From the IMG/VR virus record IMGVR_UViG_3300042691_044868, positions 6,965 to 70,964 of that record: a stretch of 64,000 nucleotides of DNA; one strand, given 5' to 3'. Positions 1,297 through 53,907 of this stretch are shown here, piece after piece (the stretch's first letter is position 1; every line of letters begins with the position of its first letter). This DNA comes from a virus. Both the position numbers and the translations under genes were made by a program. The notes below the pieces were generated by a model. The model was not told the DNA's origin, did no database searches, and saw only the letters and a program-made list of their open reading frames with translations.

Positions 1297-4200
1297 TTAT
1301 TGGTTTTCCGGAAGCAACTCCGCCTGTTTTTCGACCAGGCGTTTGACCTGTGATTCAATCAGGGCCTTGCGTTTAATCGGGCGAAGAACCCGGGATACGA
1401 GTTCCTTGGCGACATTGGGGTCCTGGGTGTTGAGGATCGCGTCGAATACCTTCGGGTTGGACAGGACATTGACGATATCCGGTCCTGCCGCCGCCATCCA
1501 GTCGTACTTCTCTTCGGAGGAGAGGGTTTTGCCCAGGAACACGGCGTCGCTCATGGCCTTCTGGAACTGTTGGGGCGACATGCGTCCGGCGGCGTATTCA
1601 AGCTGGGCCTCCCTGACTGCCACGTCCGAGAGTTCGCTGGGGCTCCAGAGGATGCCCACGCGCTTGGCGGCAAGGAGGGCGAACACACGGGTTTCGGGAT
1701 CTTCCGAGTTGATGTCAGCGCCCAGCGAGAAGAACCGTTTGGCGATCGGGATACCGCGCAGGAGCGGAATCTTGACGGGGGTCCCGAGCATGGATAGGTC
1801 AGGACGAAGAACTTTTCCAATTGTCTTTCCAGCTTCTGGGGACACGGCTTCAGCCGCCTCGGGGATCGAGGCCGCAAACGGAATACTTCTCAGGAAAGAT
1901 CCGGTGATTCCGATCTTGGCCGGACGCCCAGCAGAACTTTGTCTAAACGCGTCAACAACATTCTCCAAGTCGCGAAGGGTGGCGTAACCAGGAACAACGA
2001 TTGTTCCCGCCAGATTGCCGACAAAGTCGGCCAACTCCTGGACCTTGCCTTGGGCTCCGGGCTGTCTGGGATACACCGCATTGAACACACGGCGCATTCC
2101 GTTCATAAAGGCCAGATCAACTATGCTGGAAGCAACCATCGGAATTGCACCCAAAGCCGCGGTCATCGTGGCTTCAGCCTCGCTACGTTTGGAGTAACGG
2201 CTGGCTTCCACAAATATGGCAACCGGCAACAGAAAACCGCTGACTCCGTACGGAAGAGATTCCCAGCTAATAAACTTGGGGGTACCATCAGCAAATCGTC
2301 CGATCTGAATGGATTTGGGTTTGGCCCCGGCGGCAGTCCATGCCTTGCGCTGGGCCGCATCTTCTGGGCCATTGTAATGCACCATAAACGCTGGGTCTTC
2401 TTCACGGTCCGGACCCCAAGCTCCGAAAGCCCGCAAGATGGCGAGCAATCCCATGGTTCCAATATGACCGATGATTACTTTTGCAAGCTGGATATTGAAA
2501 GCGTTGGTTCCCGGCTGCGCGGCCTGTCTGCGGTACTTGGAATTCTTTTCGGTAAACGTTCCGGATCCAACCAGAAGACGCTTGAGGCTCCAGGCTGGCA
2601 TCCAGTTAAGGGCCTCGTTGGTCAGACTGCTTGCCGTTTTCAAGAACTTGAAGATGGTGCGTAAAGTCCAATGACCGTTGGCAGCAAGGCGCTGGAGGCC
2701 AGCCATCAATTTTCCAAGTGAGCCCTCGAAGTCGTTGGTATAAGTTGCACGACGGGCAAATTCCGTGGACATCTCGGTGATGCGTTGGCCGTCTTCGTCG
2801 CGGCCCTGCTCAAGAATTTCTTCGATTCTCGCAAGTTTCTGAGAGGCATTTAAACCAAAGGTCTTAGCTTCCACTTCGGCTTGGGCGATAGCCCTCTCGC
2901 GGGCTTCCGGGGTGTAATTCAAAAGGCGTATGACTTCGGCATCCACATCGGCCTGCTCGGTGTATCGGGTAGTGGCAATACGATAAGCCTCGGCAATCTC
3001 CATGGCCTTCTTTGCCCCCATCTTGTTGAAAGCGTCGCCCATGGCCATGCCCTGACTGACCCACACGGCGGGGGTGAGGGCCGCGTTCATCACATTGCCG
3101 GTCACCGTATTGGGGTTCAGGGAAATAGTCATGCTCTGCCCCAACGGGAGGCTGATTTCCTGATAAGCGTCCTCGATAGGCAAACGACCTCGCTTGGCAT
3201 TTTCAAACTTTTTCTTCATCGCCTGGAAGGTATTGACTGTGGAGAAATTGTTGGCAACGGTCATATCTGCCGCAGCCGACAAGTCACCTTTGCGAACAAT
3301 ATTCAAGGCTGTCCAAGCCTCTCCTGTCCCGCCAAGCCACTTGGGAAGTGCCACTTGGAACAGGCGGGCAAATCCACGGAATCCGCCACCAGTACCGGTC
3401 TTCTTGAACAGACCTTCGATGCTGTTCATCGAACTCATCAAAAACACATCCGTAGTCACCTGAAGTGTTCCTCCCCAGGTATTGATTCCGAGGGTGCTGA
3501 TCGAGGCCAGCAAGTTGAAGGTTTGCAGGTCGACGATCAAATCACCCCAGGCGATCGGGGCCGAAGTCTTGATGAACCCAAACAGATCATTGAGTCCGCG
3601 CATCCGGATACTGCCTTCCGGCATCTTGGCAATTTTCTTGATCTTAGCTTCGATCTCGGCTCGAACCTCCGGACTGACATCCGGCAGGCCGATGGAGTCG
3701 CGGATAACCTGGAAGACTGCGTCATTACGTAGGGCGCCGAGGTTGGCGGCATCCATCAAGCGCTGAAGAACACCGCGAATCTTTCGGGTTTTCCTTTCCT
3801 TGTTCTTTTCGTAGCGAGCCAGGATGTTAGCTAACTCCCTCTTCCGCTCCTGTTCGACCAGGGACTCCAGACTCTTGGACAGGAATCGGGTGATCTCCAG
3901 GCGCTTGGCCTCGGACAGATTAGTCTCCTTAAGAAGAAGATCGCGAAGTTTTCCGGTGAACGTGGAAATATCTCCGTCGCTTTGGCGGATCAGTTGGCGA
4001 ATGTTTACCGACTCCCCACCGATGGTGTTGAGCTTGGTCAACGCGGCTTTGAGCTGAGACTGGCTGACTGGGGCCTGCATGGATTTGTCGATCAGGTTCT
4101 CAAGCGTCTCGCGGACATCTTCCGGATAATTGTTAAGAAGTTTGTCCCGGGTCAAATCCCAGGCCCGTTGCACAACCTCGAAGTTCGAGATAAGCGCCTT

Positions 4201-7200
4201 GACGTTCTGGGCTGCCGACGGAGGAATTGGACGGGGAAACTTTTCCTTGAGCGCCGCCTGTTCCCGCATGGCGGGCTTGATGATGCGGGCCAAATAACGG
4301 AAAAACTCTTCTACCTTCGGCTCCTGCCCGCTACGAGCAGCTTCCCGGGCGAAAGCCTGGGATAGGATTTCGCCGATTGCGTCGGCCATATCCTTATCCG
4401 GGTCCAGCTTAACCTTGCCCCGTCCCCGCGTCTTTTTCTGTTCTTCCTGATAACCACGCTCAGCTTGCTCGACGGTCGGAGGCGTGAAGACCGGGGCATT
4501 GCCCATGTTCTGGGCTTCCATCTCAAGACGGTTCCTGACCACCAAAGCAGCCGCCGCGCCGTAGAGATCAATCTGGTTTTGGTTAAGACCCATCCGGGCG
4601 AGGTAGGCGTTGAGCACATTACGATCCTCGAAGATTGAATCGACCGCATTGGGATCAACGGCGTTGACTTCCATGATGTGGGCCAGGATGGCATCAGCCA
4701 GATCGTTGACCGCATTCTTGTCCACCGGGATTTCATCGTTAGGCCGTCCCGCCGGAGAAGCAGCCCCGATGCGGCGCTTGAACCGGTTGAGTGCATCCAC
4801 CACGGCAGGGTTACGGTTGGCCCGGTTGATGACGGCGATGAGTTCGGAAACCCGCGGCGAGGAAGGATCTTTCGGGGCAACTTCCTTGAGAGTCTTGAGA
4901 AGTTTGTTGACTCCGGGAAGCTCGGTCAGCTGACCGACAGCCCGGACGGTGGCGTCTTCCAAGGAGAGGCTGATTTCGTTTAGCTCGGGGAGGAAAGGTT
5001 CGACCTTAAATTCGGTTGCCTTGTTGAGAATCTTGTCAACCATCAACTGAAGACTGACAGGATTCCCAGCCACCTTTTCGAAGATCTTAAGATAATTGAG
5101 CGAACGTCCGGCTTCGCTTGCGTACTTCTTCATCAGGAACACGGAAAGATCGGCCATTTTCTCCTGGGCCGAAACATCCTCAAGTCCGTCGGCCTCAATC
5201 TGAGCCGACTGAGCCTGTAGGTCGGAAACAACCTGCATGGCGATCGCAACTTCCAGGGACATCGGAACGCTCAAGCGATCCGAAAGCAACAGATTCAGAC
5301 TTTCTTCCAGCCCATAAGTCTCGACAAATTGTCTGGCCTTCTGCTCGAGAACCTCCCTTGGCTGTTCCTGATACTCGGAATTTGCGCGCATGTAGTCCTG
5401 AAGCGATCCTTCGGGGGCCAGATCGGCCAACCGGTTAACGGCTTTGGAGTAGTTAATCTTCGGTCCAGATCCGGGGGCCGGAGCGTTGAGTTGAGAAACA
5501 CGGCGGAAATAGGAGGAATAAGCCGGGGACTTTTTGATGTCGTGGTAGAGAAGTCTCCATTCCTGTTCGGAATACAGCCTGCCCTCAAAAAGAACGGGCT
5601 GTCCTCCCCGGCCTTCGAAAAGCTTGATGACGGTTTTGACAAGCCCGTCATTGTTTGATTTCCCCGAGGAGTAGACAGGATCAGTGTTGGGCAGAGTGAG
5701 GGCAACCCGGAAGGTGGGTTTGATTTTGATCCCCCTCTGTTCTTTGGAAATACGATGGATGCGGGGATCGGGGCGGAACCTGAGGGTAAGAGGAACTGTC
5801 TCTCCTTTGGCATCAGTAATGATCGGGTCGGCTGGGGTGATCGCGGAAGGCAGAACAACCGCACCGGGCCAGTTGCGTCGGGCGCGCTCAAGCGCGTGCT
5901 GGAAGTTCAACCCGTTCATTCCGTCCACGAGCACATTCCCGTCGCTGAATTTCACAACAACCGTGATCTCTGTCTTGTAATCCACCTCTGCGTAATTTTT
6001 TAACTTGGACCCATCGGCCCGGTAACCGAGATAAATGTCGGGCGTCAGAACATAGCCTGTGTCGGGATAGGAACGGGCAAACTGCACCGCCACGTTTTCA
6101 AAAATCTTCCTCGCTTTGGCGGTCTCATTGGCGGCAACCGCTCCCATGTAGGCGGCATTGTCCAGCTCGGATACAAATAGCCCGCGGCTTCCCGGGGCGG
6201 CAACTTCAAGCCTGCGATCCTTGGTCAGGAATTCAAATTGTTTGCGGATAGCCCGTTCGAGTTCGAACCGCTGTTCGGACTCCAGAGCGTCCCTGAAGTT
6301 AACTTGTGCGTCATCGAGACGCTCCAGGCTGATCTTCCCTTCGGTAAAATTAGCAGGGATTACGCCAACCCGAACAAGGTTTTCGATCAGGTCGTTAAGC
6401 GGTATTTTACGGGTGTAAAGGATCAGGGGAACAGCCGTCGGTAGCGACTTCAGACCTTGATCAAAGGCTTCCTTGCTTTCAAAGGTAACTTCACCCTTAA
6501 GCGCGGCGTTTTGAGGGGAGGTCTTAAACGCGCTGTAAATCTTTCCGTTGATGAAGTTTCTCTTGGCGTACTCCGGAATCTGCGAGAACGGAACGTTTCC
6601 GAAGTCGGCGAATCCTTGAATCGTAAACTCGTCGTTCGTTGCCAAACCAAGCCTGACCAAATCAGCCTGAAGTTGCTGGACCGGGATCTTGGCGAGGGCG
6701 TCGATGACGGCCTGGAAGTCCCCGGCCTGGGCGATGTTGGCGAACAGAACCTCAGAACTGGACAGACTCAAGGGTACGGTTACATCTTCCGCACCTTCCG
6801 CAACCTGGGGTTTTCCAAGAACCGTGGCTCGCAAGACCATGGCCTTGTCGTAAAGGCTCTTCCATTCCAGGTATTCCGCATAAAACGGATCCATTGGGAG
6901 ACCGGTATAAACTCCGCCCCTGCTTTCTCCCAAAGATTCGAAGTCCGCCAGAATCCGCATCAACGAGGCAAACTTCCACTGATCGGACTCCACGTCATCG
7001 TTAGGGCCTGCCTGTTCAGAAACCCTGGCAAGCTCCTGGTTGATGAAATCCTTGAGAACCGTGTCTTGTCCATCGATGATGGCTTGAACTGGGCTTTCGA
7101 CCGGTTCCGCCCCTTCCTGGGTGGTGGGAGCGTCGGAAACAATAAGCAGGGCTTCTCTTGGAATGGCGATTCTCTGTTCTTCGGAAAGAGCCGTCCAGAT

Positions 7201-10200
7201 GTCCATGGCGGCGCTGTTGACGTCACGCAGACTTGTCCTTACCTCACCCATCACCTGTTCGGTGGCACCACGGAAAATGTCATACTCAATCTTGGTGATG
7301 ATTCCGTTGGACAAAGCCGCGTCGAGGGCAGTCAACCACGCATCAGTGTCAACGGTCCTGCCATCATCCATGGCTGCCCGGACACCGAACACGGACTGGT
7401 TGACGTCGAAATCCAAGTAAAGTTCAATCTGCCGGTGAAGGCGAAGATCGTATTTATCCTGATCGTTGAACGGACGGGCCTGGTTCGGTGAGACACCTTT
7501 AAAGGGTGCTTCGACCGGCGTCAGGTCGGAATTGAGATTTTGCAGGCTGGAAATAGTATTTTTCAGAACTTGGTCGACGATGTTTTCAACGTTGGCCAAT
7601 CCCACCAACTTGCCGTCTTTTTGCACAACCTTGAGGGCTTCCAATAAGGCGTTGAGCCAACGCATAATGGCTTCACGGATTCCAGCTTGTTTGGACTGAG
7701 AAGTTTGGTACACGCTGTTAACAAAGAGCGTAGTCCGGCGCTTAACGGCTTGTGCCGCTTCTCCGCTCAACCCCATCAGAAGTCCTTCTTCGGTGGTCAT
7801 TCCAAGGACTTTCAAGTCCACGAGCTGGCGAACATATTCAAGCGCGACGAGCTGTCTGTTGCCCGCCATGGCATTGACAAGTTTTTGAACACCAGGTGTG
7901 TCAAGCGACAGGCCTCGGTTGGCATAGTAAAGTGATGCCACCTGCTGACGAAGGGAGGCTGGCATGATCAATCCAAGCCGTTCGGCTTCCACGCCGGGAT
8001 CTTTTCCGTCAGCGCGTAGAATCTCAAAGCTCTTTATGTGGACAACTTCCTCGAAGGCCCCGAGCACAAGGAACGTTTCAATTTCCTCTGGTGTACGCAA
8101 GTTGTAAAAATCCAGCACAGAAGCGAGTTCGTCCGGATTGACAACAATGGTGTCCTCACCGTTTGCTGCTCCTGGGACTGCGAGCAGTGCATGCGGAGAG
8201 GTTGGGTCAATGACAATATTGTTTTTGAAGCTGGGGAACAGCCGCTTGACGATTGCCTTAAACTCATCAACTCGCGTCGTTGTGGCAGCGGGAGTCGACG
8301 AGGTCGGAGCGCTCGAGAAAGTCTGTTCTCCGGTAAAGAGCCTTGCAATCGCCGGACCGTCCTCGGCAGTAAGAGCTTGGCCACCACGGGAAACCACGGC
8401 CTGGCCGGGGCCAAACGCCACCGTAAACCCGAGAGCCTTGGCCCTGGCTTCGAGCGTGCCTGCCCGAGCGTCGGCATCGGGGCTCATTGTGTCGAACCGC
8501 ACCACGATTCCAGCGTCATTGCCGCTCTCAACCACCAGACCGGATTCGACCAGGCTCTCGACGATCGGCTTGGCAACAACATCAAGCTTAACCCCGTTGG
8601 CGTCCAGCAGTTCATTGGTCTGGGCAGCCGCGTCTTCCGGATCAATTAATTCCGTTACGGCGGACGAGTTATCCTGCTTGGGGGTTTCTTTACGAAGTTC
8701 CGTTTTGGGCTGCTCGGTGACTCCTGGTTCGCCTGGAAGTTGTTCTTTTACGTCAACAGAATCCTCTTTAATAACCACCCCGAATAACTCGTAAAAATTT
8801 AAAGCTGGGTGAGGTCCAATTTTATTTGTCGTACCCTCCTCGTAGGGACGTAAATCAAATTCTTTTGGTTTTAGACCAGTTCGGCTTCTCCAAGCAGCAA
8901 ACGTCTCGTCTTGAGTAGGTTTCCACCATTCCAAAGGTTTTTTCTCGAAATCTATAAAACTATTTTCTGCCGCTATCTCTAAGAATTTATCTACTTGATA
9001 TCCAGCAAAGCCCATTAATTTTAAAATAAAATTGGCATTCTCATCACCAAGAATTTGATTTGAAAAAAGACCATACTGTAAAATAATAGGATAACCATTT
9101 TCATTTACCTCTGCGGCAAGATCAATTATTTTATTTTGTAGTTTTTGAAACGGAGAAAGTTCCTGTGCGGCCTGGGCCTGACGGCTGAGGATCGGGGTGG
9201 AGTTAACATCAAGGGCGGAGAACCCCGCACCCATGACGGTTTCCAGATTGCGGAGGCGGCGGCTTAGGCGATCCAAGGCCCACTGATCGGCTTGGGTGTC
9301 TCCGATATAAAGTTTAACTGCCACGTCGCTGGCGGTGTCCAAACGGAAAATACGGTAAATAACCTGGACGATTTCGATTGCGGAAAGGGGAGGAGTAATG
9401 ATGTACATCGATCTGGGGCTGTCTCCAACCTTGTCGTCCATCTCGATACCGACTCCACCCTTGGAGGTTGTGGTGATAAGAAGTTGGGCATTCTGCTTGT
9501 TAAAGCTGTCGAGTGCCGTCGCATTGGTATCCGATTCTCCGTGATATTCGGCAAACACGATCGGGTTTTTGCCTTCCTTAACGCGTCTTTCGTTAATCGC
9601 ATTCAGTTTGGTCCGGACAATATCGGCGGTTGCGGACACGCTTAGAATATTTTCCCGGGTGACAACATTTTGAATATCAGACTCGTTGACCGAGTTGACG
9701 ACAAATACGACCTTCCTACCGCTGTCAATGTCCTTTTCCGCATTATCCAAGGCCAGATCGATTTTAAACTCCTCGACTGCGCGCCGTTGTTCCAGAATCA
9801 TGGAGCTCATCATCCGGCCGGTCAGATTTTCCAGACCGGTCTGTTCCTCGATAAACCGCACGCGCTCTTTGGCTTCCTCGGGCAACGTCACATCCACCCG
9901 GTTTACCTTCACACCTTCCAGGGAAAGGGATCGGGAGGAGAGATATCCATGTGCGGCCAGGTCTGCAATCAGCCTGTCGAGCATTTCGTCGGCTTGCTCC
10001 TGCGTATATTCCGGAGCCAACTCCCAGGTATATTTTGTCTTGCCTGCGCGGTAAACCTTGGTCATGCCAAGAGCCGTCATCAAATTGGCCTTTTTCTCGT
10101 CCAGCGATTTTCCGGGAATATTGTCCATCACACCAAGTCTTTGCAGGGAGAACAACTGGTCGGGCGTTTCGATAGGAGAACCGGACGCAAAAATCACCCG

Positions 10201-13200
10201 ACCTGCTTTCATAGAAGCTTCCAACGCCTTTAAGATTCGGGATTCCCCCTTACCTTTTTGCTTAGCCTTATGGACGTTTCTGAGTTCCTGATGCTCGTCA
10301 ATGATCAGGATGGTATTTTCATCCATGAATGGAAGCAGGTCTTCCAAATGCTCATGGGTTGTCACCAGCATGTGGTCGGGGCTTAAAGAATCCTTGTCTA
10401 TGGGTTTTTCTTGTGTCCCACGCAAAATCGTCGGGATATCGAAAGCTTCATTTCCGACGGCCTTAGCCAAAGTCCCGGCAAACTTTCCGCGTCTCCAGTC
10501 TTTTTTGGGGTCCATGCCCAGCGCCTGCGTGGTTGAAGCATAAACAACCTTGTATCTCTTCTTGGGGTCGTTCATGTAATGCTTCGCGGCACCGCAAAGA
10601 ACGTAAGTTTTTCCGGTACCGGGCCCCGCAAACAAACCGAAAGCCCTCTGGGCCGTTGTCTCCAGCTGCGAGATAATCGATCCAAGATCGAATAACTGCT
10701 CTTTTTTCAGGATATTTTTAATACCCTGGGAGATTTTTTTGATTACGCTGGGGTCGCGCTGGCTGGTTCCTTGGCCGCGGGTGAAGACGAATTTTTTCGG
10801 AGTGGGAGTGCCTTTTTTGACAGGTTGAACTGCCGCTCCAGCAGGTTCTCCTCCGGGCTTAACACCAGCGAGTCGTCCTGTTTGAACAGCTCCTGTAGGC
10901 TTGGGTTCACCCGCTTTAGCGGGTCCGGCATCGGCACGGGGCTGTGCCTCAGGTTTTCCTGGAGCAGTTTCTGTCCTAAGCGCCGTCGATCTTTGAACTC
11001 CGGGCTTTCGGGTTCTGGAGTTTTGTTCTGCGGCTCTGTTAGCTTCTTTGATTGTTTCTTCTTCTTGTTGGTCGACATATCCTGCCTCCTTTTGTGCTCT
11101 TTTGGTTACGGAAATAAGAGTATCCCTTAGATCCTTAACAGCTTTGATTTTCTTTGAAACGTTGGTTTCACCTCCGCTTTGGTTAAACTTGGCGACGGCG
11201 GCTTCAATCTCCTGTCTGAACCCATCGAGTTGTTGTTGGGAAAGGCTGTCAGCGAACGTCTCGAGTTGAACATCCGTATCGGCCAACAGATTGGCCGGAT
11301 CGGTCTCTTCGGAAACGCTGGCGGCAATCATGCCTTGCAGATAGCTTTTGATCTTGATTGCATTGTCGGCATCCCGTGAGACGGTGATTCCAACAATCGG
11401 ACTACCAGTCGGAGCATTGAGCAACATGTTGTAGTCGGAAGGCGTGATATAATCCAAGGCCAGAGCTTCCTCGATCTGCTTAATGACAAGATTGACGTCC
11501 GAGTCGGAAATATCCTGGGCGTCCATTTTCCGATCGGTAACCGGTTTCTTGGGCGTGGCGACTACTTGGGTGACGGCACCCTGAGGCGTTTGAACCTGCA
11601 CAGTCTGAGCCACCGGAAGAGTTCCGGCTTTTTGGCGGGCTTGGAATTCCTTTTGAGCCAGAGTTTGGAATTGTTTGCGAAGAACCAACTGGCGACGGAC
11701 AACGGTTTGCTGGGACTTATTGATCTCAGCGGCAACCTGCTTTGAAGTCTTTAAATTTCCGCCCTCATAAGTCGAGTCAAAAATAGCCTTGTCTTCGTCG
11801 GTCGGCAGACTTTCCCGGAACTGGGAGCGTACTTCCTCAAGCAAAAGTCGCTTGGACTCCAGCTGGTCTGTTTCGGTTCTTTGACGTTTGAGGTTTTCAT
11901 CTACCTGATCGGAAACCGATTTCTCTTTCGCTGCGGCTTCTTGTCGTTCCGTTTCCCTGCCGACAGCTTCTTCTCCGGCAGTTTCGCCCTCACCTGCACC
12001 CATCTCTTCTTTATAAGGAACCATGAGGCCCCGTTGCTGTTTTAATCTTGGCCACGCTTTTTCGATAAGTTTTGATTCGAGCTGGTCGAGCGCGGTAGAC
12101 AAATAAAATGGCGTCTTGCCTTTACGAACGTACTCTTGAAATCTGTTCCTCAAAGCCGCCATCAAATTCGCGGCAAAATCGAATTGTTTATAAGCCGCAT
12201 ACTTCCTGGATTCAAAAATGCCTTGCTTGGCCTTAATAAAGGCCTCCACAGTTTCTGCGGCAGTCAGCAGAACATCCCCTGTGTTTTCATCAATCGCCCC
12301 GATATCCTTCAACATCTTGACGGTGGACTCGTTATTCTTATCGAAAACCTCCCAGAATAATTCCCTGTTTATCTCCCGCTCACTTACTGGGGTGTTCTTC
12401 AAATAAGTCATCGTTTCCCCCTCTGGATTGAGTTCGGGAATCGTGAGTGTATCGCTCAAACTTATTCTGCCTTGGTTTAATTTTCGGTCTGCGTCGGCTT
12501 CTTTCTCGTCCAAATCTTTTTCTTTCTCCTCGGAAACCCGCGCAAAAACCTCGGCTTTGAGGGCATTTGCCCGTTGACGGAGTGCGGTGGCTTGTTGCTT
12601 TAGAATTTGGGCCTGTTCAGGAACCGACTCCTCGGCTTCCTTGTCCAGACGATCGGCCTCCGCCAGATCGAAGCGGATCTTCGGATTGTTTTGAGCGCTG
12701 AAATCCAAGGCAAAAAAGTCATCGATCTTTTTCTGTTGAGCCGCTTCGATTGGTGTTTCCCCGATATACTGTCTTTCAATCTGGGCTATCTCCCCGACAC
12801 TTGTAGCTTTGCTTAGGTATCGTTCGTAAATATCGTCCAATTCACTTTCAGTATACTTTTTAGTGTTCCGGATTCGGTCAAGGGCTTCTTCTTTGTCGAT
12901 TGAGAAGGCTTCTTTAGGGTCATCTTCACCTAACCAGACCGGGGAATCCTTATCCCCGGTCCTTACACCAAGAATCAAAAGATCACCTGTGGCCTCATCA
13001 AGTTTTGTATAAACATCGCCGCGACCGTCAAGCTGACGGGCTAGGGCTTCTGTCTGTGGGCTTGCCTTGAAACGTATGGTTTTCTCCCCGTTTCGGCTCA
13101 TTCTGTCCGCAAGATTGTCGTAAATCAAAACGGAGTTTTCCGCTTTTTCAACGTCAAATTCAAAGTTAGGAACTCCGACAATGTCTTCCTCTCCTTCGAC

Positions 13201-14931
13201 TTCGATTGGTGCTCCTGCCTCGGGTTCTGTGACTGATGGGGCGGGGGGCTGGGTTCTTTTTGTTTCGGCATCGTCCGCAAGTTTTTCCGCCAGCTTGTTG
13301 GCTTCCTCGTCTACTTTGGCTCCGGCATCCCCAACTTGCTTGGTAAGTTCTTGGTGAGTTTGCGGAGAAACACTTTTGTCGACTCTATCTAACGCCGCTT
13401 TTTTGGTCACGCCGTCAAAAACTGTGTCAAAAAGAGGAACAAAATCTTCTCCAATATTACCCCGCAAATCCTGCAATCGTTCGTTCTTGTCTTCCTGGGA
13501 TAGATTCGGGTCGTTCAAAACGGCCCCAATTTGTTCCCGAAAAGCAATCGCCTTAAAAAGATTTACCTTCTGCTGTAAGTTAACGTAATTCTTGCGGAAC
13601 CCCAAAGAACGCATCCCCAAACCAGCACCGGCAGAAGCTGCAAAAGATTCGGCGGCGGTAGCCACCGGATCTTGTCCGCGCAGAATGGCTTCAACTTCCT
13701 CGGAAGCAAATTCTCCCAGGGTCATGGCTGTAGCGCCGAGGGCAGTCTGAGCGGCTGCCCCGGCTAAAGGAGCATTTTTTGAAATTGACTGTTTTGCTAT
13801 TCTCCGCGCCAGGGTGTTTTCTAGACTTTGTTCCAACGATTCGCCAACACGCTCGGCCCCATACAGGGTAATGGCTTCAGTGCCAACATCGACCAAACGG
13901 TCATACCAAGGAAGATCCCGTTTGTCGCTTTTAAGCGACTGACTAGCCCCAAGAATACCGTAAGCCGTGGCCGAAGCTGCTTTCGGGCCTTGAATCAGTT
14001 TGCGGGCCAAACCTGTTCCCAGCGCAAATTGTCCAAGCGAGCCGAGTACTGATCCAGCCAAGGTGGATTTAAGATAATCCGTAGTGATAACTTCATTAAT
14101 TGCCTCGGTTAAAGCCGCTCGCTTTGCCACCTGATCGGGATTTTTTTCGTCGATAATAATATCACCGATATTCACGAAGGGTACAAAAGCATCGCCCGTT
14201 TTTACCGCAAAATTTCGTAGGCCGGCTGTACCAAAAGCTTTTGTTTTGTCGTCTTTAAGATCGTTTAAGTATTCCTGGGCGCGCCCCAAAGTCATACCGA
14301 CTGCCGGTAGTTCTCCAAGTTTCATGCCAACCTCAACAAGATCGCCATCCGGTTTGGCAATCTCCTTGCCTTCATCCAGATCCTTTTTGAACTGGGCTCC
14401 TTTGGTCATGGCAAAACGGATATCGAAATCGTCCGTAAGATCGCCAATGTATTGGCGAGCAATCTGAGCCTGGTTCAGGGCTTCAATGTCTTTTTCATCG
14501 AGGCCCTGGGCATAACGGGCTCCGACGGCAAACTGACGGCCCATTGCCTTGGCTGTCCCCCAAAGCTGTTGAAGAGCGGATGCCTCCTGGCCGGTGTCCT
14601 TCTTGATCTGCCCCATTTCCTTGAAGTAATCAGAAATGACCTGTTGACTACCTTTCTCGAAGGTAGCGGCGGCTTCTGGAGATCTGTCCGTCAAAACCCT
14701 AAAATTAAGAAGCCCGCCTTTTTTGGTCGGGTTATCCCGGGCCTGTTTCATCACGGCGGGTAAATCGCCGATATCTGAAAGCTGGGTCAGGTCTCCGGAA
14801 AAAGTGTCGCTAGACTCGTTAAGCGAGAGATCTCCGGGTATAGCAATGACCTCATCGGTGGATTCGTCAATGACGATATCTTCGGGGTCCGATTGATCAA
14901 GTAGCGGATTAAGGGTGTCTTCGGGGGGCAT
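1297..14931 (-). CDS. giant (4544 aa) polyvalent internal virion/ejection protein with SF2 helicase, sigma-like and zincin-like modules
   Basis: Last of three ejection-type genes after the tail genes. Walker A GPGTGKT, IIDEHQ, ASGSP, GGVGIEMDD and Q..YRIFR helicase motifs; EEVVH; HTH TSKQVAAEINKSQQTV; hydrophobic Gly/Ala-rich terminal regions. Confidence 0.85.
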   Translation of the reverse strand: MPPEDTLNPLLDQSDPEDIVIDESTDEVIAIPGDLSLNESSDTFSGDLTQLSDIGDLPAVMKQARDNPTKKGGLLNFRVLTDRSPEAAATFEKGSQQVISDYFKEMGQIKKDTGQEASALQQLWGTAKAMGRQFAVGARYAQGLDEKDIEALNQAQIARQYIGDLTDDFDIRFAMTKGAQFKKDLDEGKEIAKPDGDLVEVGMKLGELPAVGMTLGRAQEYLNDLKDDKTKAFGTAGLRNFAVKTGDAFVPFVNIGDIIIDEKNPDQVAKRAALTEAINEVITTDYLKSTLAGSVLGSLGQFALGTGLARKLIQGPKAASATAYGILGASQSLKSDKRDLPWYDRLVDVGTEAITLYGAERVGESLEQSLENTLARRIAKQSISKNAPLAGAAAQTALGATAMTLGEFASEEVEAILRGQDPVATAAESFAASAGAGLGMRSLGFRKNYVNLQQKVNLFKAIAFREQIGAVLNDPNLSQEDKNERLQDLRGNIGEDFVPLFDTVFDGVTKKAALDRVDKSVSPQTHQELTKQVGDAGAKVDEEANKLAEKLADDAETKRTQPPAPSVTEPEAGAPIEVEGEEDIVGVPNFEFDVEKAENSVLIYDNLADRMSRNGEKTIRFKASPQTEALARQLDGRGDVYTKLDEATGDLLILGVRTGDKDSPVWLGEDDPKEAFSIDKEEALDRIRNTKKYTESELDDIYERYLSKATSVGEIAQIERQYIGETPIEAAQQKKIDDFFALDFSAQNNPKIRFDLAEADRLDKEAEESVPEQAQILKQQATALRQRANALKAEVFARVSEEKEKDLDEKEADADRKLNQGRISLSDTLTIPELNPEGETMTYLKNTPVSEREINRELFWEVFDKNNESTVKMLKDIGAIDENTGDVLLTAAETVEAFIKAKQGIFESRKYAAYKQFDFAANLMAALRNRFQEYVRKGKTPFYLSTALDQLESKLIEKAWPRLKQQRGLMVPYKEEMGAGEGETAGEEAVGRETERQEAAAKEKSVSDQVDENLKRQRTETDQLESKRLLLEEVRSQFRESLPTDEDKAIFDSTYEGGNLKTSKQVAAEINKSQQTVVRRQLVLRKQFQTLAQKEFQARQKAGTLPVAQTVQVQTPQGAVTQVVATPKKPVTDRKMDAQDISDSDVNLVIKQIEEALALDYITPSDYNMLLNAPTGSPIVGITVSRDADNAIKIKSYLQGMIAASVSEETDPANLLADTDVQLETFADSLSQQQLDGFRQEIEAAVAKFNQSGGETNVSKKIKAVKDLRDTLISVTKRAQKEAGYVDQQEEETIKEANRAAEQNSRTRKPGVQRSTALRTETAPGKPEAQPRADAGPAKAGEPKPTGAVQTGRLAGVKPGGEPAGAAVQPVKKGTPTPKKFVFTRGQGTSQRDPSVIKKISQGIKNILKKEQLFDLGSIISQLETTAQRAFGLFAGPGTGKTYVLCGAAKHYMNDPKKRYKVVYASTTQALGMDPKKDWRRGKFAGTLAKAVGNEAFDIPTILRGTQEKPIDKDSLSPDHMLVTTHEHLEDLLPFMDENTILIIDEHQELRNVHKAKQKGKGESRILKALEASMKAGRVIFASGSPIETPDQLFSLQRLGVMDNIPGKSLDEKKANLMTALGMTKVYRAGKTKYTWELAPEYTQEQADEMLDRLIADLAAHGYLSSRSLSLEGVKVNRVDVTLPEEAKERVRFIEEQTGLENLTGRMMSSMILEQRRAVEEFKIDLALDNAEKDIDSGRKVVFVVNSVNESDIQNVVTRENILSVSATADIVRTKLNAINERRVKEGKNPIVFAEYHGESDTNATALDSFNKQNAQLLITTTSKGGVGIEMDDKVGDSPRSMYIITPPLSAIEIVQVIYRIFRLDTASDVAVKLYIGDTQADQWALDRLSRRLRNLETVMGAGFSALDVNSTPILSRQAQAAQELSPFQKLQNKIIDLAAEVNENGYPIILQYGLFSNQILGDENANFILKLMGFAGYQVDKFLEIAAENSFIDFEKKPLEWWKPTQDETFAAWRSRTGLKPKEFDLRPYEEGTTNKIGPHPALNFYELFGVVIKEDSVDVKEQLPGEPGVTEQPKTELRKETPKQDNSSAVTELIDPEDAAAQTNELLDANGVKLDVVAKPIVESLVESGLVVESGNDAGIVVRFDTMSPDADARAGTLEARAKALGFTVAFGPGQAVVSRGGQALTAEDGPAIARLFTGEQTFSSAPTSSTPAATTTRVDEFKAIVKRLFPSFKNNIVIDPTSPHALLAVPGAANGEDTIVVNPDELASVLDFYNLRTPEEIETFLVLGAFEEVVHIKSFEILRADGKDPGVEAERLGLIMPASLRQQVASLYYANRGLSLDTPGVQKLVNAMAGNRQLVALEYVRQLVDLKVLGMTTEEGLLMGLSGEAAQAVKRRTTLFVNSVYQTSQSKQAGIREAIMRWLNALLEALKVVQKDGKLVGLANVENIVDQVLKNTISSLQNLNSDLTPVEAPFKGVSPNQARPFNDQDKYDLRLHRQIELYLDFDVNQSVFGVRAAMDDGRTVDTDAWLTALDAALSNGIITKIEYDIFRGATEQVMGEVRTSLRDVNSAAMDIWTALSEEQRIAIPREALLIVSDAPTTQEGAEPVESPVQAIIDGQDTVLKDFINQELARVSEQAGPNDDVESDQWKFASLMRILADFESLGESRGGVYTGLPMDPFYAEYLEWKSLYDKAMVLRATVLGKPQVAEGAEDVTVPLSLSSSEVLFANIAQAGDFQAVIDALAKIPVQQLQADLVRLGLATNDEFTIQGFADFGNVPFSQIPEYAKRNFINGKIYSAFKTSPQNAALKGEVTFESKEAFDQGLKSLPTAVPLILYTRKIPLNDLIENLVRVGVIPANFTEGKISLERLDDAQVNFRDALESEQRFELERAIRKQFEFLTKDRRLEVAAPGSRGLFVSELDNAAYMGAVAANETAKARKIFENVAVQFARSYPDTGYVLTPDIYLGYRADGSKLKNYAEVDYKTEITVVVKFSDGNVLVDGMNGLNFQHALERARRNWPGAVVLPSAITPADPIITDAKGETVPLTLRFRPDPRIHRISKEQRGIKIKPTFRVALTLPNTDPVYSSGKSNNDGLVKTVIKLFEGRGGQPVLFEGRLYSEQEWRLLYHDIKKSPAYSSYFRRVSQLNAPAPGSGPKINYSKAVNRLADLAPEGSLQDYMRANSEYQEQPREVLEQKARQFVETYGLEESLNLLLSDRLSVPMSLEVAIAMQVVSDLQAQSAQIEADGLEDVSAQEKMADLSVFLMKKYASEAGRSLNYLKIFEKVAGNPVSLQLMVDKILNKATEFKVEPFLPELNEISLSLEDATVRAVGQLTELPGVNKLLKTLKEVAPKDPSSPRVSELIAVINRANRNPAVVDALNRFKRRIGAASPAGRPNDEIPVDKNAVNDLADAILAHIMEVNAVDPNAVDSIFEDRNVLNAYLARMGLNQNQIDLYGAAAALVVRNRLEMEAQNMGNAPVFTPPTVEQAERGYQEEQKKTRGRGKVKLDPDKDMADAIGEILSQAFAREAARSGQEPKVEEFFRYLARIIKPAMREQAALKEKFPRPIPPSAAQNVKALISNFEVVQRAWDLTRDKLLNNYPEDVRETLENLIDKSMQAPVSQSQLKAALTKLNTIGGESVNIRQLIRQSDGDISTFTGKLRDLLLKETNLSEAKRLEITRFLSKSLESLVEQERKRELANILARYEKNKERKTRKIRGVLQRLMDAANLGALRNDAVFQVIRDSIGLPDVSPEVRAEIEAKIKKIAKMPEGSIRMRGLNDLFGFIKTSAPIAWGDLIVDLQTFNLLASISTLGINTWGGTLQVTTDVFLMSSMNSIEGLFKKTGTGGGFRGFARLFQVALPKWLGGTGEAWTALNIVRKGDLSAAADMTVANNFSTVNTFQAMKKKFENAKRGRLPIEDAYQEISLPLGQSMTISLNPNTVTGNVMNAALTPAVWVSQGMAMGDAFNKMGAKKAMEIAEAYRIATTRYTEQADVDAEVIRLLNYTPEARERAIAQAEVEAKTFGLNASQKLARIEEILEQGRDEDGQRITEMSTEFARRATYTNDFEGSLGKLMAGLQRLAANGHWTLRTIFKFLKTASSLTNEALNWMPAWSLKRLLVGSGTFTEKNSKYRRQAAQPGTNAFNIQLAKVIIGHIGTMGLLAILRAFGAWGPDREEDPAFMVHYNGPEDAAQRKAWTAAGAKPKSIQIGRFADGTPKFISWESLPYGVSGFLLPVAIFVEASRYSKRSEAEATMTAALGAIPMVASSIVDLAFMNGMRRVFNAVYPRQPGAQGKVQELADFVGNLAGTIVVPGYATLRDLENVVDAFRQSSAGRPAKIGITGSFLRSIPFAASIPEAAEAVSPEAGKTIGKVLRPDLSMLGTPVKIPLLRGIPIAKRFFSLGADINSEDPETRVFALLAAKRVGILWSPSELSDVAVREAQLEYAAGRMSPQQFQKAMSDAVFLGKTLSSEEKYDWMAAAGPDIVNVLSNPKVFDAILNTQDPNVAKELVSRVLRPIKRKALIESQVKRLVEKQAELLPENQ

Positions 14932-24064: not shown

Positions 24065-24880
24065 TTATGATAAAGCACTCCAAGCGCCAGCGGCTCGAAC
24101 ATAAAGAGTAGTAGAGGCGGTTCCATCTAGACGAAGATAAATGGATCCATTGACAGCACTTGAAGATGGAATGCCTGTTCCGCATAAAATTGATGGGGCA
24201 TTGGCGACACCAAGTCCTCCAGTGCCAGCGGCAGTAGCACTTAAATCAATGCTTCCTCCCGCATAAGTAGACGAGCCTGATAAATTCAATGATCCGCCTT
24301 TGTTAGAAGTGTTAATCGATCCGCCGGCCCCGACATTACTTGCTGCGGTATTGATTGCTCCGCCTGAATAAGTTCCAACTGCGTTTGTAGTTATGCTTCC
24401 ACCTATATAACTTCCACTAATCCCATAAGTATTTATACTGCCTCCGTAAGTAGAAGTATTTACAGCTCCACCATAAGTTGAAGTATTTATACTGCCGCCA
24501 TAACCTGACAAATCAATACTTCCTCCATAACTTCGTAAATCAATGGTTCCACTAAGGACATCGCTGAAACCCAATGGAAGAGATACTTGTGAAATCCAAA
24601 CATAAGATGCTTCAAGAACTTTTGATCCTGCCCCGGAATAAACCCATCTTTTTCCATCAGTGGTCACAACAATACTTCCCTCGTTAATCAAATCCTGTTG
24701 GGCGGTGGTGAGGGCCGTAATATCGCCTGAACTTACAATAACATCGTTAGTATTTTCCAGCGTAGTTACACGAGTATCCAGGCCATCAAGTTCATCTTGA
24801 ATTCCGGCAGGTGGAGGAGTGGTGTTTTCTGGACCGCAATCGCAACTGCGGCCATAGTTGTCGGGATTGGGAAAACTCAT
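24065..24880 (-). CDS. fibre-like protein with GGSIN(T) repeats
   Basis: About 9 GG(S/A)(I/V/L)(N/D/T) units; C-terminal G.PS..A.NGSIYLR.DG....LYV....W. Confidence 0.75.
   Translation of the reverse strand: MSFPNPDNYGRSCDCGPENTTPPPAGIQDELDGLDTRVTTLENTNDVIVSSGDITALTTAQQDLINEGSIVVTTDGKRWVYSGAGSKVLEASYVWISQVSLPLGFSDVLSGTIDLRSYGGSIDLSGYGGSINTSTYGGAVNTSTYGGSINTYGISGSYIGGSITTNAVGTYSGGAINTAASNVGAGGSINTSNKGGSLNLSGSSTYAGGSIDLSATAAGTGGLGVANAPSILCGTGIPSSSAVNGSIYLRLDGTASTTLYVRAAGAWSALS
24427..24540 (-). repeat. degenerate 27-nt tandem repeats encoding GGSINTSTY-like units
   Basis: agtatttatactgcc / agtatttacagctcc / agtatttatactgcc at 27-nt spacing. Confidence 0.7.
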
Positions 24881-30572: not shown

Positions 30573-30887
30573 TTATCCTTCGACGGGCAGGTTAAGATTC
30601 CGAAGCACGTTCAGAATCGTATTCACCTTGCCAACGATCGTCTGGAGGTCGGCAGCAGAATAAGTTCCGCTGGCAACAACCGTGGACGTTGCGCTAGGTG
30701 TACCGGCATTCGTGAGGGCGAGCAAGCTCAGGGAGCTCACTGTATCGCCGGACACTCCGCCAGTGGACGATCCGATTGTGGCTACGGTAGAACCTGCGGT
30801 GCCCCATTCGGGACCCTTATTCAGGGTGCCACGAATTTGGGCCGCAAGGACTTTATCCTGCGTCGCTACTTGAAGAGGGAAAGCCAT
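30573..30887 (-). CDS. putative capsid decoration / head-fibre protein
   Basis: Directly after the MCP with SD aaaggag; C-terminal ..KVN.IL..LR..NL helix typical of head-fibre proteins. Confidence 0.65.
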   Translation of the reverse strand: MAFPLQVATQDKVLAAQIRGTLNKGPEWGTAGSTVATIGSSTGGVSGDTVSSLSLLALTNAGTPSATSTVVASGTYSAADLQTIVGKVNTILNVLRNLNLPVEG

Positions 30888-30909
30888 GTTAATGGTCTCC
30901 TTTCTTCAA

Positions 30910-32292
30910 TTAGCTAACGTAGTCGAGGCTGATCGCGGCCCGCTTATGCAGGATGGCATAACCATACTGCGGGAACACAGGACGCGCACCGTTGGCCAGA
31001 ACGCCGCGGAAGTAACCCACATTACCATCCGGATTGGTCTGACGGTCAAGAATATTGACCCATTTGAACTCACCCCGGTAATTTTGCGGGTTGAAGCTCA
31101 TCTTGTTGGCGGTGTTAACCGGACCAGGGACCACCGAGCGGAACACATCCTGATGGTAGATGTAGCTCAGCTCATAGGCCGCAGTCTCGTACTCGCTGTT
31201 GATGTTGTAGGCCGTACCCTTGGTCGTGGTTTCCTTCTTGAACGGATACACACGGATGAGCTTGTCATTCGTGGTATCGTACACGCGGAACCGCGGGGGA
31301 TACGGATCGATGGCGTGATAAAAGCCACCGTAGCTGCGCTCGATGCCGAGCGGGGTCAGCAGTTCATTGGGCTTCGCATAGCGGAAGTCCTGGCGGATGT
31401 CGGCGTTGAGCCGGATCAGGGACTCGCTGGTCTCAGCACCGCAGATCAGCATGAACACCGGGGCACCGTTCTCACGGCCCATGGCGTTGGTTCCCGCGCC
31501 GTCGCGGACCAATTTCATGTAGAGCCGTTTGAGGATGCCCTGAGTCAGCTGGCTGTTGGGCAGGTTAGCCGCAGTGATCGCGCCGGAAGCGGCAGTGCCG
31601 ACTCCGGTGGTAACCGCGTCATAGATGACCTTAGCGTCGGCGGAGCTTGCGCTCGTGGAGGCAACGATCGAGGAAGTGCTGGGGTAAACCAGGTTTCCTT
31701 CGTCCGCAACCTGCGCCGTGTACTGATTCCGGTAGCGATCCTGCCAGACGAGCGAGGTCGATTCAGTCAGCACGTCCATGATATTGGACAGCTGCTCACG
31801 ACGCTTCACCGCGAAGCGCAAGTCTTCGAGGGCAACGTCGGGGGACTCCAAAGAGGCCCACTCGAGGCTGTACTGGCGGAGCTTCTGGCCGAACGTCACG
31901 CCATTAAGAGTGGCGGGAAGAACGTTACCGGCAGACGACGTGGACTGCACCGGAGGGGTGGAGCCACCAGAGAGCGTCTGGGTATAGGCGTTGAAGCCGG
32001 TGTAGGTCTGATCAACCGGGTTAGAACCCAGTTTGCGCCAGCCCGAGCCGGCATCAGCCACAATTTCGTTTTCGGCATAACCGTTGGTATTGCCGACGCC
32101 CGCGAGAGTCCGGGACGGGTAGAACCGCTCGAAAGTAACCGAGCTGATCACGTCGCCCATCTCCTCGGGGAACTGTTCTTGCTTGGTCAGTTTGAGCCAA
32201 GCGGAAGTGTCGATCGTCCGGCGATAAATCTCCGGTCCGATACGGCCAGCTTCCTTCACGAGCAACTGCTCGATGGAGTAAGTAGTAGCCAT
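30910..32292 (-). CDS. major capsid protein
   Basis: 460 aa after portal and scaffold; strong SD (aaagga), strongly biased codons, own promoter and downstream terminator. Confidence 0.8.
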   Translation of the reverse strand: MATTYSIEQLLVKEAGRIGPEIYRRTIDTSAWLKLTKQEQFPEEMGDVISSVTFERFYPSRTLAGVGNTNGYAENEIVADAGSGWRKLGSNPVDQTYTGFNAYTQTLSGGSTPPVQSTSSAGNVLPATLNGVTFGQKLRQYSLEWASLESPDVALEDLRFAVKRREQLSNIMDVLTESTSLVWQDRYRNQYTAQVADEGNLVYPSTSSIVASTSASSADAKVIYDAVTTGVGTAASGAITAANLPNSQLTQGILKRLYMKLVRDGAGTNAMGRENGAPVFMLICGAETSESLIRLNADIRQDFRYAKPNELLTPLGIERSYGGFYHAIDPYPPRFRVYDTTNDKLIRVYPFKKETTTKGTAYNINSEYETAAYELSYIYHQDVFRSVVPGPVNTANKMSFNPQNYRGEFKWVNILDRQTNPDGNVGYFRGVLANGARPVFPQYGYAILHKRAAISLDYVS

Positions 32293-32512
32293 TTTAGTTA
32301 GTTATCCTTTCATCCATCCCCCGCTCGCGCAAGGGATGTTATGATTTGCGGCAGTAGCGTTAACTCCACTCGGAGCTATTCGCTCTTACCACACTCAAAA
32401 CTATTCCCTGGCGGCATCCCAGAGCTTTTAATGCCCGAATTGTGACCATTTCAATTTTTATAGGTCGTGTCCGGAAAGGGTCTCAGTCTTTATACCTGTA
32501 CCGAACAAATCA

Positions 32513-43118: not shown

Positions 43119-43423
43119 GTTACTCCCCAGCCAGCAATGCGCTGGCCGAGGAGTTCACAATCATTCCGTATCCGTTTTCGGATACGGCTCGTGAGGAACT
43201 TGAGGCCGAATATGCGCTTCTTCTCTCATCGGGAGCCAAGCCAACCGAAATCAGTGACATGATTTTGTATGCGCTTGAGATCCTGCTGAACAAACGCAAG
43301 AAGGAAAAAGATCAGGCAAAGTACGACCAGCTTACATTTCAGCTGTCCGACATGCTTGGTCGGCTGGTTATATTTGAAGAAACATTCTTAAATCCAAAAT
43401 ACAAATACAAATCTAAAAAATGA
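43115..43423 (+). CDS. hypothetical protein
   Basis: GTGA and ATGA overlaps at both ends. Confidence 0.65.
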   Translation: MSYSPASNALAEEFTIIPYPFSDTAREELEAEYALLLSSGAKPTEISDMILYALEILLNKRKKEKDQAKYDQLTFQLSDMLGRLVIFEETFLNPKYKYKSKK

Positions 43424-49391: not shown

Positions 49392-49425
49392 CCCCTGGAA
49401 ACATTGAGTCTTAGACCCCCCACCC

Positions 49426-49792
49426 AATGGTGGTTTTGTAAGTAGTTATAGATTCGAGGGTTGTAGATTCTAGGGTTGGGGGGTGGGGGGTGGGGGGTAC
49501 ATTTTGAACTTCGTTGCCGTGCGGCTGTTGCGATTTTGCGTGTTTTTTATTTGCGCGTGGGGTAACGAGTTGAAATACCCCCACCCACCCCCACCCCTCC
49601 CACCCCCCTCTCTTATTATATATTATATATATTTAAAAATAAAAGAGATACAGAAGTGGGACCCCTTGCTTAGGGGGGTGGGGGGTGCATCAATTTGGGT
49701 GGGGGTATACCCCCACCCTGCGACAGATTTGAGTACCCATTTGGGGGTATACTACCCACTAGTAAGTAGACTTTGTAGAGACTACCACCATT
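49426..49792. other. non-coding origin-like region: G/C tracts, AT-rich core, 22-bp palindrome
   Basis: (TGGGGGG)3 at 49477-49497; C-tracts 49578-49608; AT run 49613-49650; gggtgggggtatacccccaccc at 49697-49718. Confidence 0.6.
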
Positions 49793-49825: not shown

Positions 49826-49908
49826 TGGGAAGGGCTGGACTCGAACCAGCGAAGGCGTAAGCCAAGAGATTTACAGTCTCCCCCGTTTGACCGCTTCGGT
49901 ACCTTCCC
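49826..49908 (-). tRNA. tRNA-Tyr(GUA), CCA not encoded
   Basis: GGGAAGG/CCTTCCC acceptor stem, anticodon loop CTGTAAA, long variable arm, GGTTCGAGTCC T-arm. Confidence 0.93.
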
Positions 49909-50613: not shown

Positions 50614-50641
50614 ATGCTATTTTGTTTACGGGGAATGTCAA
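50614..50641 (-). promoter_or_regulatory. promoter TTGACA-N16-TAGCAT, 6 nt from ATG 50607 (leaderless geometry)
   Basis: Read directly on the reverse complement. Confidence 0.7.
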
Positions 50642-51364: not shown

Positions 51365-51407
51365 ACTATAAATTTTCCTTGCCAGGGGTCAATTGAATTG
51401 AGACACT
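51365..51407. promoter_or_regulatory. interlocked divergent promoters
   Basis: Minus strand TTGACC-N16-TATAGT-N7-TTG(51357); plus strand TTGCCA-N17-GACACT-N10-ATG(51418). Confidence 0.7.
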
Positions 51408-53291: not shown

Positions 53292-53380
53292 GGGGGAAAA
53301 AAGGGTGGGGGGTGGGGGGTATCGGTATAGGGGGTGTCCGAAGCCCACGACCGACCCGTGCGGGAAGGGTGGGGGGTAGG
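53292..53380 (+). repeat. G-tract block with AAGGGTGGGGGGT duplicated
   Basis: Copies at 53301-53313 and 53365-53377; same unit as in the 49.5-kb region. Confidence 0.7.
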
Positions 53381-53900: not shown

Positions 53901-53907
53901 CCTACTG

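Follow-up and report, generated by a model that had tools for sequence, protein, structure and literature searches.

The IMG/VR virus record IMGVR_UViG_3300042691_044868 contains a giant gene whose 4,544-residue product carries, at residues ~850-1102, a stretch that most likely adopts the two-domain fold of a sigma factor, with a sigma2-like domain, a linker, and a sigma4-like domain predicted in that order. The DNA analyzed here, referred to as the window, is 64,000 nucleotides (nt) long and makes up most of the 70,964-base-pair (bp) record; within it, the sigma-like module as we delimit it occupies positions 11626-12384, slightly more than the 11660-12330 under which it was first noted. That this is a real sigma-family fold appears highly probable from the structure models. 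The fuller reading, which we favor tentatively and with somewhat less than even confidence, is that these residues form a divergent but complete extracytoplasmic function (ECF)-type sigma module, which would be a fixed cargo of a family of giant phage proteins resembling in build the 'polyvalent' virion giants of short-tailed phages, and would act on host RNA polymerase in the manner proposed below. The gene and the parts of the module are as follows:

1297..14931, minus strand: giant open reading frame (ORF) of 4,544 amino acids (P0002), of polyvalent or ejection-type build, which carries the sigma-like module
12265..12384, minus strand: conserved lead-in, residues 850-889, predicted as short helices and a hairpin packed on the sigma2-like domain
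12028..12264, minus strand: sigma2-like helical domain, residues 890-968, recognized with VIA-align, TIGR02937, and BLASTP
11917..12027, minus strand: disordered acidic linker, residues 969-1005, recognized from the predicted local distance difference test (pLDDT) and composition
11626..11916, minus strand: long helix and sigma4-like helix-turn-helix (HTH), residues 1006-1102, with sigma4 matches at ~1026-1097

An earlier note on this DNA had pointed to a region-2-like stretch, an acidic linker, and a region-4-like HTH following one another in the giant protein. Translation of 11660-12330 on the minus strand yields residues 868-1090 in a single open frame, and the peptides quoted in that note are present in the order given, with AETVEAFIKA at residues 892-901, EEMGAGEGETAGE at 975-987, and FRESLPTDEDK...VLRKQF at 1038-1088. 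The order of the three parts is real, and in both domains the predicted fold agrees with that of ECF-type sigma factors. The resemblance of residues 868-1090 to sigma factors exceeds chance, because it is found by the NCBIfam profile TIGR02937 (sigma70-ECF), is conserved in all eight members of the protein family, and makes sigma factors the best fold matches of two structure models. The TIGR02937 match scores 22.7 bits (E 6e-5 against the library) and covers residues 29-222 of the 223-residue stretch (P0001), with an alignment that spans profile positions 34-162 of 165, taking in both domains colinearly. When the whole 70,964-bp genome was searched in six frames, this profile matched nothing else (22.9 bits for the module), and six-frame searches with TIGR02937, Sigma70_r2, and Sigma70_r4_2 revealed no second sigma-like gene in the genome. 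BLASTP against Escherichia coli RpoE gave two colinear local matches, each nonsignificant (E 0.24 and 0.29), one within region 2.2/2.3 and the other where region 4 begins; the former places EAFIKA... on RpoE residues 52-70 (E 0.24).

We then turned to the predicted structure of the module, for which two models are available, one built from 3 sequences (pLDDT 66.6) and one built by AlphaFold2 from 8 sequences (mean pLDDT 77.7). The 8-sequence model consists of the lead-in (model residues 1-40), a helical domain (41-119), a disordered stretch (119-153), a long helix (157-192), and the HTH (196-253), with pLDDT values of 92-95 over the lead-in, 81-95 across most of the N-terminal domain, and 83-90 in the HTH. 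Across model residues 119-153, the linker, pLDDT drops below 50 in both models. Prediction thus gave a region-2 helical bundle besides the HTH, the feature on whose presence the earlier note had made its idea depend. Against 48,161 PDB chains searched by VIA-align, sigma factors accounted for 19 of the best 21 rows obtained with the 8-sequence model, a count that includes the BldN, CnrH, AlgU, and WhiG rows, which we take to be sigma factors independently of their titles. The best match was 2h27_D, region 4 of E. coli sigmaE on -35 DNA (Z 8.4, root-mean-square deviation [rmsd] 2.2, 69/69 residues), and further sigma4 matches were SigR region 4 and SigF (both Z 7.8) together with SigL, SigW, CnrH, and SigA (Z 7.2-7.8). 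Full-length BldN, SigH, sigma32, SigB, SigK, and sigma28 aligned across both domains in the correct order.

For the sigma2 part, the 3-sequence model was matched by VIA-align to 5uxx_C, the Bartonella ECF sigma RpoE (Z 6.9, rmsd 3.2, 76 residues), and to CnrH (Z 6.5); 5uxx_C ranked first for model residues 41-120, and seven more sigma entries stood in the top 30. The corresponding match of the 8-sequence model was 1h3l_B, the N-terminal fragment of SigR (Z 7.1). Alignments to sigma32, SigB, and the SigR N-terminal fragment start at model residues 7-21, and the predicted lead-in may substitute for sigma region 1.2/2.1. Foldseek, run with the 8-sequence model against the PDB, listed 44 rows, and all 44 were sigma factors or initiation complexes, aligned over ~200-290 columns with a best E of 0.016; with the 3-sequence model the same search gave noise only. 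Against the viral models of BFVD, 21 of the 50 listed rows were named sigma factors and 17 were unnamed. Both of these searches included alignments to full-length sigma factors longer than 200 columns. Judged on these models, a sigma2-linker-sigma4 fold is most likely, its sigma4 half being well supported and its sigma2 half moderately supported.

The module could instead be a sigma-like fold that serves as a DNA-binding or structural element only, for example by holding the leading DNA end or working with the helicase, and never contacts RNA polymerase. The sigma4-type HTH does match binders of the LuxR/GerE and KorA types (7vim_A, Z 7.2; 5clv_E, Z 5.7), and the language-model neighbors of the module, at 0.95-0.96, include Sigma70_r4_2/GerE/HTH_23 clusters along with several ECF sigma clusters. 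HTH and other DNA-binding domains are also reported as occasional parts of polyvalent proteins in the main text of the polyvalent survey (PMC5512222). The N-terminal domain nevertheless resembles sigma2 as well, and complete sigma factors can be aligned across the two domains in the same order, unlike generic HTH proteins, leading us to regard a purely DNA-binding role as quite unlikely.

Conservation of the module was followed across its family. A word-based search recovered two full-length relatives, a profile search covering 1.84 billion protein representatives gave six matches, each of them giant (3,762-4,629 residues) with the module at ~850-1160, and a scan of IMG/VR added one relative on a fragment; in prokaryote genome contigs, 312 pattern matches yielded 0 confirmed relatives. 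The family comprises eight giant proteins, the window protein and seven full-length relatives, of 3,762-4,629 residues. In all eight, the module occupies the same relative position, with 65-26% identity to the window copy, and the lead-in is 38-70% identical to that of the window protein. The linker is 28-37 residues long and only 10-42% identical, and acidic residues outnumber basic ones in every member (D+E > K+R in 8/8). Framework positions F1038, R1039, L1042, and F1051 are invariant in the family alignment.

A number of observations in sequence, structure, family, and genome weigh against the reading of the module as an injected ECF-type sigma. The TIGR02937 score of 22.7 bits lies below the curated cut-off of 42.9, the profile matches two of the eight members, and the score falls to 16.4 bits when the same protein is cut differently. 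Pfam Sigma70_r2 (PF04542) and Sigma70_r4_2 (PF08281) had no match in six frames of the genome at E ≤ 10, in searches whose controls were positive in 11/14 and 14/14 genomes, respectively, and the Pfam sigma families matched none of the eight module sequences nor the 223-residue stretch. Sequence searches of the PDB with the stretch, the 3- and 8-sequence profiles, and the whole protein all came back empty. With the 8-sequence profile as query and E. coli RpoE alone or 12 RpoE orthologues as targets, hhalign spanned only 42 sigma4 columns (E 0.03, probability <2%), laying FR-ESLP... of the giant protein on RpoE residues 131-174; this test is weak because the available RpoE profile was narrow, covering only orthologues mutually at least 86% identical. 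On the structural side, fold scores are modest, with one VIA-align Z of at least 8 and no Foldseek E of 0.001 or less, and the models were built from 3 and 8 sequences only. The sigma2 half, which the earlier note had called ambiguous, is indeed the weaker one (Z 6.9-7.1), with unrelated helical bundles reaching equal Z and tying with the sigma matches in the 3-sequence model.

These scores leave room for an explanation in which there is no sigma kinship, and a helical bundle, an HTH, and an acidic linker came together by convergence or were assembled by a predictor that over-fitted a few short motifs. Every sequence test falls under its curated threshold, the fold scores are in the range that VIA-align itself calls common for helical proteins, and the alignments behind the models are shallow. 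We nevertheless consider this explanation improbable: three libraries return almost purely sigma-factor lists for the two-domain model, and TIGR02937, an independent sequence model, aligns both domains colinearly, in agreement with the language-model neighbors.

Further points on the adverse side come from the family and the genome. The profile search of 1.84 billion representatives returned giant proteins only, with zero free-standing sigma factors. The predicted sigma4 recognition helix ranks among the least conserved parts of the module, and QTVVRRQL, found in the window's subgroup, is replaced by basic-residue-poor sequences in five distant members. Repeat and k-mer searches of the genome gave no phage-specific bipartite promoter motif spread before many genes. 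Virion packaging is read from gene position only, and residues 778-1978 and the C-terminal 955 residues have zero tblastn matches in 50,697 GenBank phage records, so that the family comes without an experimentally characterized virion protein as anchor.

The variable recognition helix, set beside the invariant framework residues, and the lack of a repeated bipartite promoter motif would suit a sigma mimic that binds host polymerase without conferring promoter specificity. Such a mimic could sequester or anchor the core enzyme, bringing about host shut-off, or could tether the entering DNA-protein complex, and the same fold evidence would speak for it. However, a full sigma2-linker-sigma4 arrangement with an acidic linker in eight of eight members exceeds what a docking handle needs, and from one phage lineage to another a recognition helix can change in step with its promoters. 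We therefore judge a mimic of this kind unlikely.

Beyond the module, the giant protein includes the following features:

10771..11007, minus strand: low-complexity spacer rich in Pro, Ala, Gly, and Lys, ~residues 1309-1387, read from the translation and composition, which separates the module from the helicase
9232..10683, minus strand: strawberry-notch-type superfamily 2 (SF2) helicase/translocase, ~residues 1417-1900, with Pfam AAA_34, DEAD, and ResIII
7777..8199, minus strand: conserved zincin-like domain with an (H/E)ExxH motif, residues 2245-2385, recognized by its motif and without a Pfam match
1300..4164, minus strand: most conserved, C-terminal module, residues 3590-4544, recognized from the conservation profile and hydropathy, with four hydrophobic segments at 3798-4276

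The helicase to which the earlier note had supposed the sigma-like part to be tethered does follow the module. It is all that Pfam sees in the window protein (AAA_34, E 3.9e-8, with DEAD and ResIII, residues 1417-1603), its motifs include Walker A GPGTGKT at 1436-1442 and DEHQ at 1545-1548, and all eight members have AAA_34 (the P-loop domain of strawberry-notch proteins), three of them also Helicase_C_4. ART-PolyVal, an ADP-ribosyltransferase domain, occurs in one of the relatives P0003-P0009 (E 7.3e-7; 1/8 members) and is absent from the window protein, indicating that the family's cargo changes between members, with the sigma-like module and helicase being retained. The zincin-like motif reads HExxH in two members (P0006 and P0009) and EExxH in six, including EEVVH at residues 2294-2298 of the window protein, and from its sequence the domain is possibly a degenerate metallopeptidase of the sort proposed to process polyvalent proteins. 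The 4,544-residue chain contains a single cysteine. For the C-terminal module, the closest ESM Atlas clusters consist of viral proteins 667-954 residues long (score 0.98), and the nearest Pfam-bearing cluster carries LPD38, a polyvalent-protein domain (0.96); the LPD38 hidden Markov model had no match in the genome, in a search whose control was likewise silent. A search for shorter proteins resembling this module found one match, probably a fragment, and we presume the module to be the envelope-spanning or ejection part. Among hallmark polyvalent features, the family thus shows the Sno-type (strawberry-notch) helicase, ART-PolyVal in one of eight members, and the zincin-like motif, with LPD38 as a language-model neighbor only.

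The genomic setting is that of a virion-gene module. Upstream of the giant gene and co-oriented with it lie a gene for a phrog_3287 virion structural protein and a tail-fiber-like gene, with the large terminase further upstream; downstream, again co-oriented, are an endolysin-like gene and a phrog_1645 virion structural protein (E 2.6e-104). Polyvalent and giant virion proteins are very large multi-domain proteins encoded in a virion-gene module, as this one is on the minus strand, and we consider it likely that it is packaged and ejected. It is made late in any case, because its gene is co-oriented with the late genes, and one could accordingly picture a protein that stays unpackaged and acts late inside the infected cell, for instance as a membrane-anchored component of a transcription or replication factory or as a late-gene sigma. 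PHROGs gave no match to the giant protein and tblastn against the GenBank phages none either, leaving it without homology to a proven virion protein in those searches. Yet the gene stands between virion structural genes and a lysis gene, and the protein's size, near-absence of cysteine, low-complexity spacers, and hydrophobic conserved C-terminal module, along with the ART-PolyVal relative, fit the giants described as injected. A purely intracellular, late role strikes us as very improbable.

The searches made detected no phage RNA polymerase. PF00940, PF00623, and PF00562 had no match at E ≤ 10 in six frames of the genome; the PF00623 and PF00562 searches had working controls, and the PF00940 control set was likewise without a positive. 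The earlier note had seen no DxDGD motif in the protein, and this is borne out across the family, in which [NDS].D.D[GA]D occurs in none of the eight proteins. The looser D.D.D is found only at scattered, differing positions, with none in P0009, and the T7-type motif B pattern is present at a shared position in none of the eight. We rejected an RNA polymerase hidden in the giant protein as a candidate, there being no conserved DxDxD, no conserved motif B, and no Pfam matches, in tests that could miss highly divergent polymerases such as those of the crAss or phiKZ type.

A close known parallel in design is gp50 of phage N4, the ~3,500-residue virion RNA polymerase of schitoviruses, likewise a giant multi-domain protein encoded among virion genes in a ~70-kilobase (kb) phage. 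N4 gp50 is reported to be a giant, loosely connected protein, ejected like beads on a string, that carries a transcription enzyme and makes the ejectosome transcriptionally active (PMC13434306), and podoviral internal virion proteins are reported to host domains destined for the cytoplasm (PMC4819975). In N4, the ejected protein starts transcription at the entry site, and the logic common to both phages would be a transcription function inside an ejection-protein scaffold. The cargo differs: N4 gp50 carries a T7-like catalytic polymerase, whereas here none was detected and the cargo is a sigma-like module and an SF2 helicase. The host enzyme would have to catalyze transcription in our phage, as the searches for polymerase families and motifs were negative. 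PHROGs, tblastn, and megablast detected no resemblance to N4-type proteins at the sequence level, and megablast with 25 kb of window DNA found nothing in the 50,697 phage records. N4 also shares with the present genome rIIA/rIIB genes and a family A DNA polymerase. In the window these are an rIIA-like gene (phrog_612, E 4.6e-96; 60476-62824, plus strand), an rIIB-like gene (phrog_609, E 2.4e-67; 62849-63703, plus strand), and a family A DNA polymerase gene at 43420-45210; with a genome of ~71 kb, the layout recalls N4-type phages, minus their polymerases.

On the analogy with N4 gp50, we propose a mechanism in which the giant protein would travel inside the capsid and pass into the cell like a string of beads. 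The C-terminal module, which is conserved and partly hydrophobic, would remain at the envelope and serve ejection, and the N-terminal cargo would arrive in the cytoplasm. There, the sigma-like module would dock on host core RNA polymerase, its sigma2 part contacting the beta' clamp helices and its sigma4 part the beta flap, such that a holoenzyme would form where phage DNA enters, and the neighboring strawberry-notch helicase might move or open the entering DNA. The outcome would be immediate phage-specific transcription, possibly helping to pull in the genome, with no virion RNA polymerase involved. In phage T7, host polymerase has been described as drawing the genome in. In a holoenzyme, sigma2 exposes its N-terminus to solvent and sigma4 its C-terminus, and a module embedded in a longer chain is therefore topologically possible. 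A co-fold of residues 850-974 (8-row alignment) with residues 220-340 of E. coli beta', a stand-in for the host, scored 0.00 in both runs, which had no controls, and counts neither way. We put binding of the module to host polymerase only just short of an even chance, and its action as an injected specificity factor we hold to be doubtful. Equally speculative, and rather unlikely in our estimation, is the evolutionary scenario in which a ~70-kb phage lineage replaced an N4-type injected RNA polymerase by an injected sigma covalently built into the ejection protein beside a strawberry-notch translocase, so that the first core polymerase to meet the DNA would become a phage-specific holoenzyme at the entry pore.

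The module and its carrier also invite comparison with polyvalent proteins and with sigma factors proper. The best fold matches are ECF (group 4) sigmas, namely E. coli sigmaE (2h27_D, 1or7), Bartonella RpoE (5uxx_C), and Mycobacterium tuberculosis SigH and SigL (5zx2_F, 6dv9_F). With these the module shares a predicted sigma2 followed by sigma4, a flexible linker, a length of ~200-250 residues, and the absence of region 1.1 and sigma3. Unlike free ECF sigmas, it is embedded in a 4,544-residue chain and falls below every curated sequence cut-off, and its linker and pre-sigma4 helix are longer, at ~70 residues. Its top BFVD neighbors are free-standing phage sigmas, from Bacillus phage Shanette, Tenacibaculum phage PTm1, Cronobacter phage GAP52, and Salinivibrio phage CW02, and as with those, the phage would supply the specificity subunit and the host the catalytic core. 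Free-standing phage sigmas are separate small proteins that, as far as is known, are made after infection; in contrast, the module belongs to a presumed virion protein and would be in place ahead of phage gene expression. The carrier has the same huge multi-domain, virion-module build and the same Sno-type SWI2/SNF2 helicase as the polyvalent proteins known from phages and conjugative elements, as described in the survey by Iyer, Burroughs, Anand, de Souza, and Aravind (2017; PMC5512222). In polyvalent and DarB-like giants the usual partner of the helicase is a DNA methylase, whereas here the methylase is absent and a sigma-like module lies N-terminal to the helicase. The word 'sigma' occurs zero times in the main text of the polyvalent survey (PMC5512222), a jumbo-phage survey treats phage sigma factors and injected polyvalent proteins separately, and full-text literature searches, within the text they reach, returned no account of a virion protein containing a sigma module. 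The giant protein is a known polyvalent/ejection design with a new cargo, the sigma-like module, which adds a putative transcription-initiation domain to the cargo catalogue of giant 'polyvalent' virion proteins.

Known phage takeover of transcription, to our knowledge, proceeds in two ways, by proteins made after entry (sigmas, anti-sigmas, and modifying enzymes) or by an injected whole RNA polymerase. If the proposed mechanism is true, it would be a third way to start infection, besides the use of host sigma70 promoters and the delivery of a complete viral polymerase. A sigma module in the ejection machinery would be a cheaper answer than injecting a whole polymerase, and it would explain the start-up of a phage that has neither a polymerase of its own nor clear host-type early promoters.

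We next considered the promoters of the window. The earlier note had taken the lack of TTGACN promoters in the genes past 53.4 kb, which it called early, as support for a sigma-like factor, and neither part of this argument is supported. Sigma70-like consensus matches are at chance level wherever scanned, with 9 found against 7.6 ± 3.0 expected at 47-64 kb and 16 found against 13.4 ± 4.3 expected at 27-47 kb, which leaves the scarcity of such matches beyond 53.4 kb uninformative. As for the word early, the ends of the record share a direct repeat of 69 bp only (positions 1-69 and 70896-70964 of contig G000:C1), which does not define physical genome ends. A genuine terminal repeat is a less likely explanation for it than an assembly overlap from a circular or permuted map, and 'early' and 'late' ends are for that reason not readable from the record. 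The best sigma70-type matches of 47-64 kb (10/12 positions), at 50614-50641 and 51365-51392 on the minus strand, precede the minus-strand genes 49918-50607 and 50638-51357, which are divergent from the plus-strand block starting at 51418.

Two noncoding regions of the window, at 49.48-49.75 kb and 53.30-53.38 kb, are the only places where a G-rich motif, GGGTGGGGG(G)TA, occurs. In the first (49400-49760), copies lie on both strands and include a palindrome, around an AT-rich core at ~49615-49650; in the second (53295-53380), three copies lie just upstream of ORF 53406-53900, whose end is marked by a strong hairpin terminator (53907-53941). A relative with just ~64% protein identity in the module has an almost identical copy of the 49.4-kb region (locus L004, 1340-1600, minus strand). 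This region could serve as an origin, an end region, or a promoter of a special kind, and the G-rich clusters are no more than candidate promoters. Rfam, applied to 49.3-53.45 kb, gave a transfer RNA (tRNA) and two sub-threshold microRNA look-alikes and nothing more. The sole tRNA of the window is a tRNA-Tyr (anticodon GTA) at 49826-49908 on the minus strand, in the large noncoding region beside the G-rich repeats.

Two further observations concern genes elsewhere in the window. The ORF at 24065-24880 encodes an unannotated protein of the virion module, in which three tandem 27-nt units at 24427-24533 on the minus strand encode 9-residue repeats. Finally, two ORFs on opposite strands, 30886-32301 on the plus strand (471 residues) and 30910-32292 on the minus strand (460 residues), overlap almost exactly.

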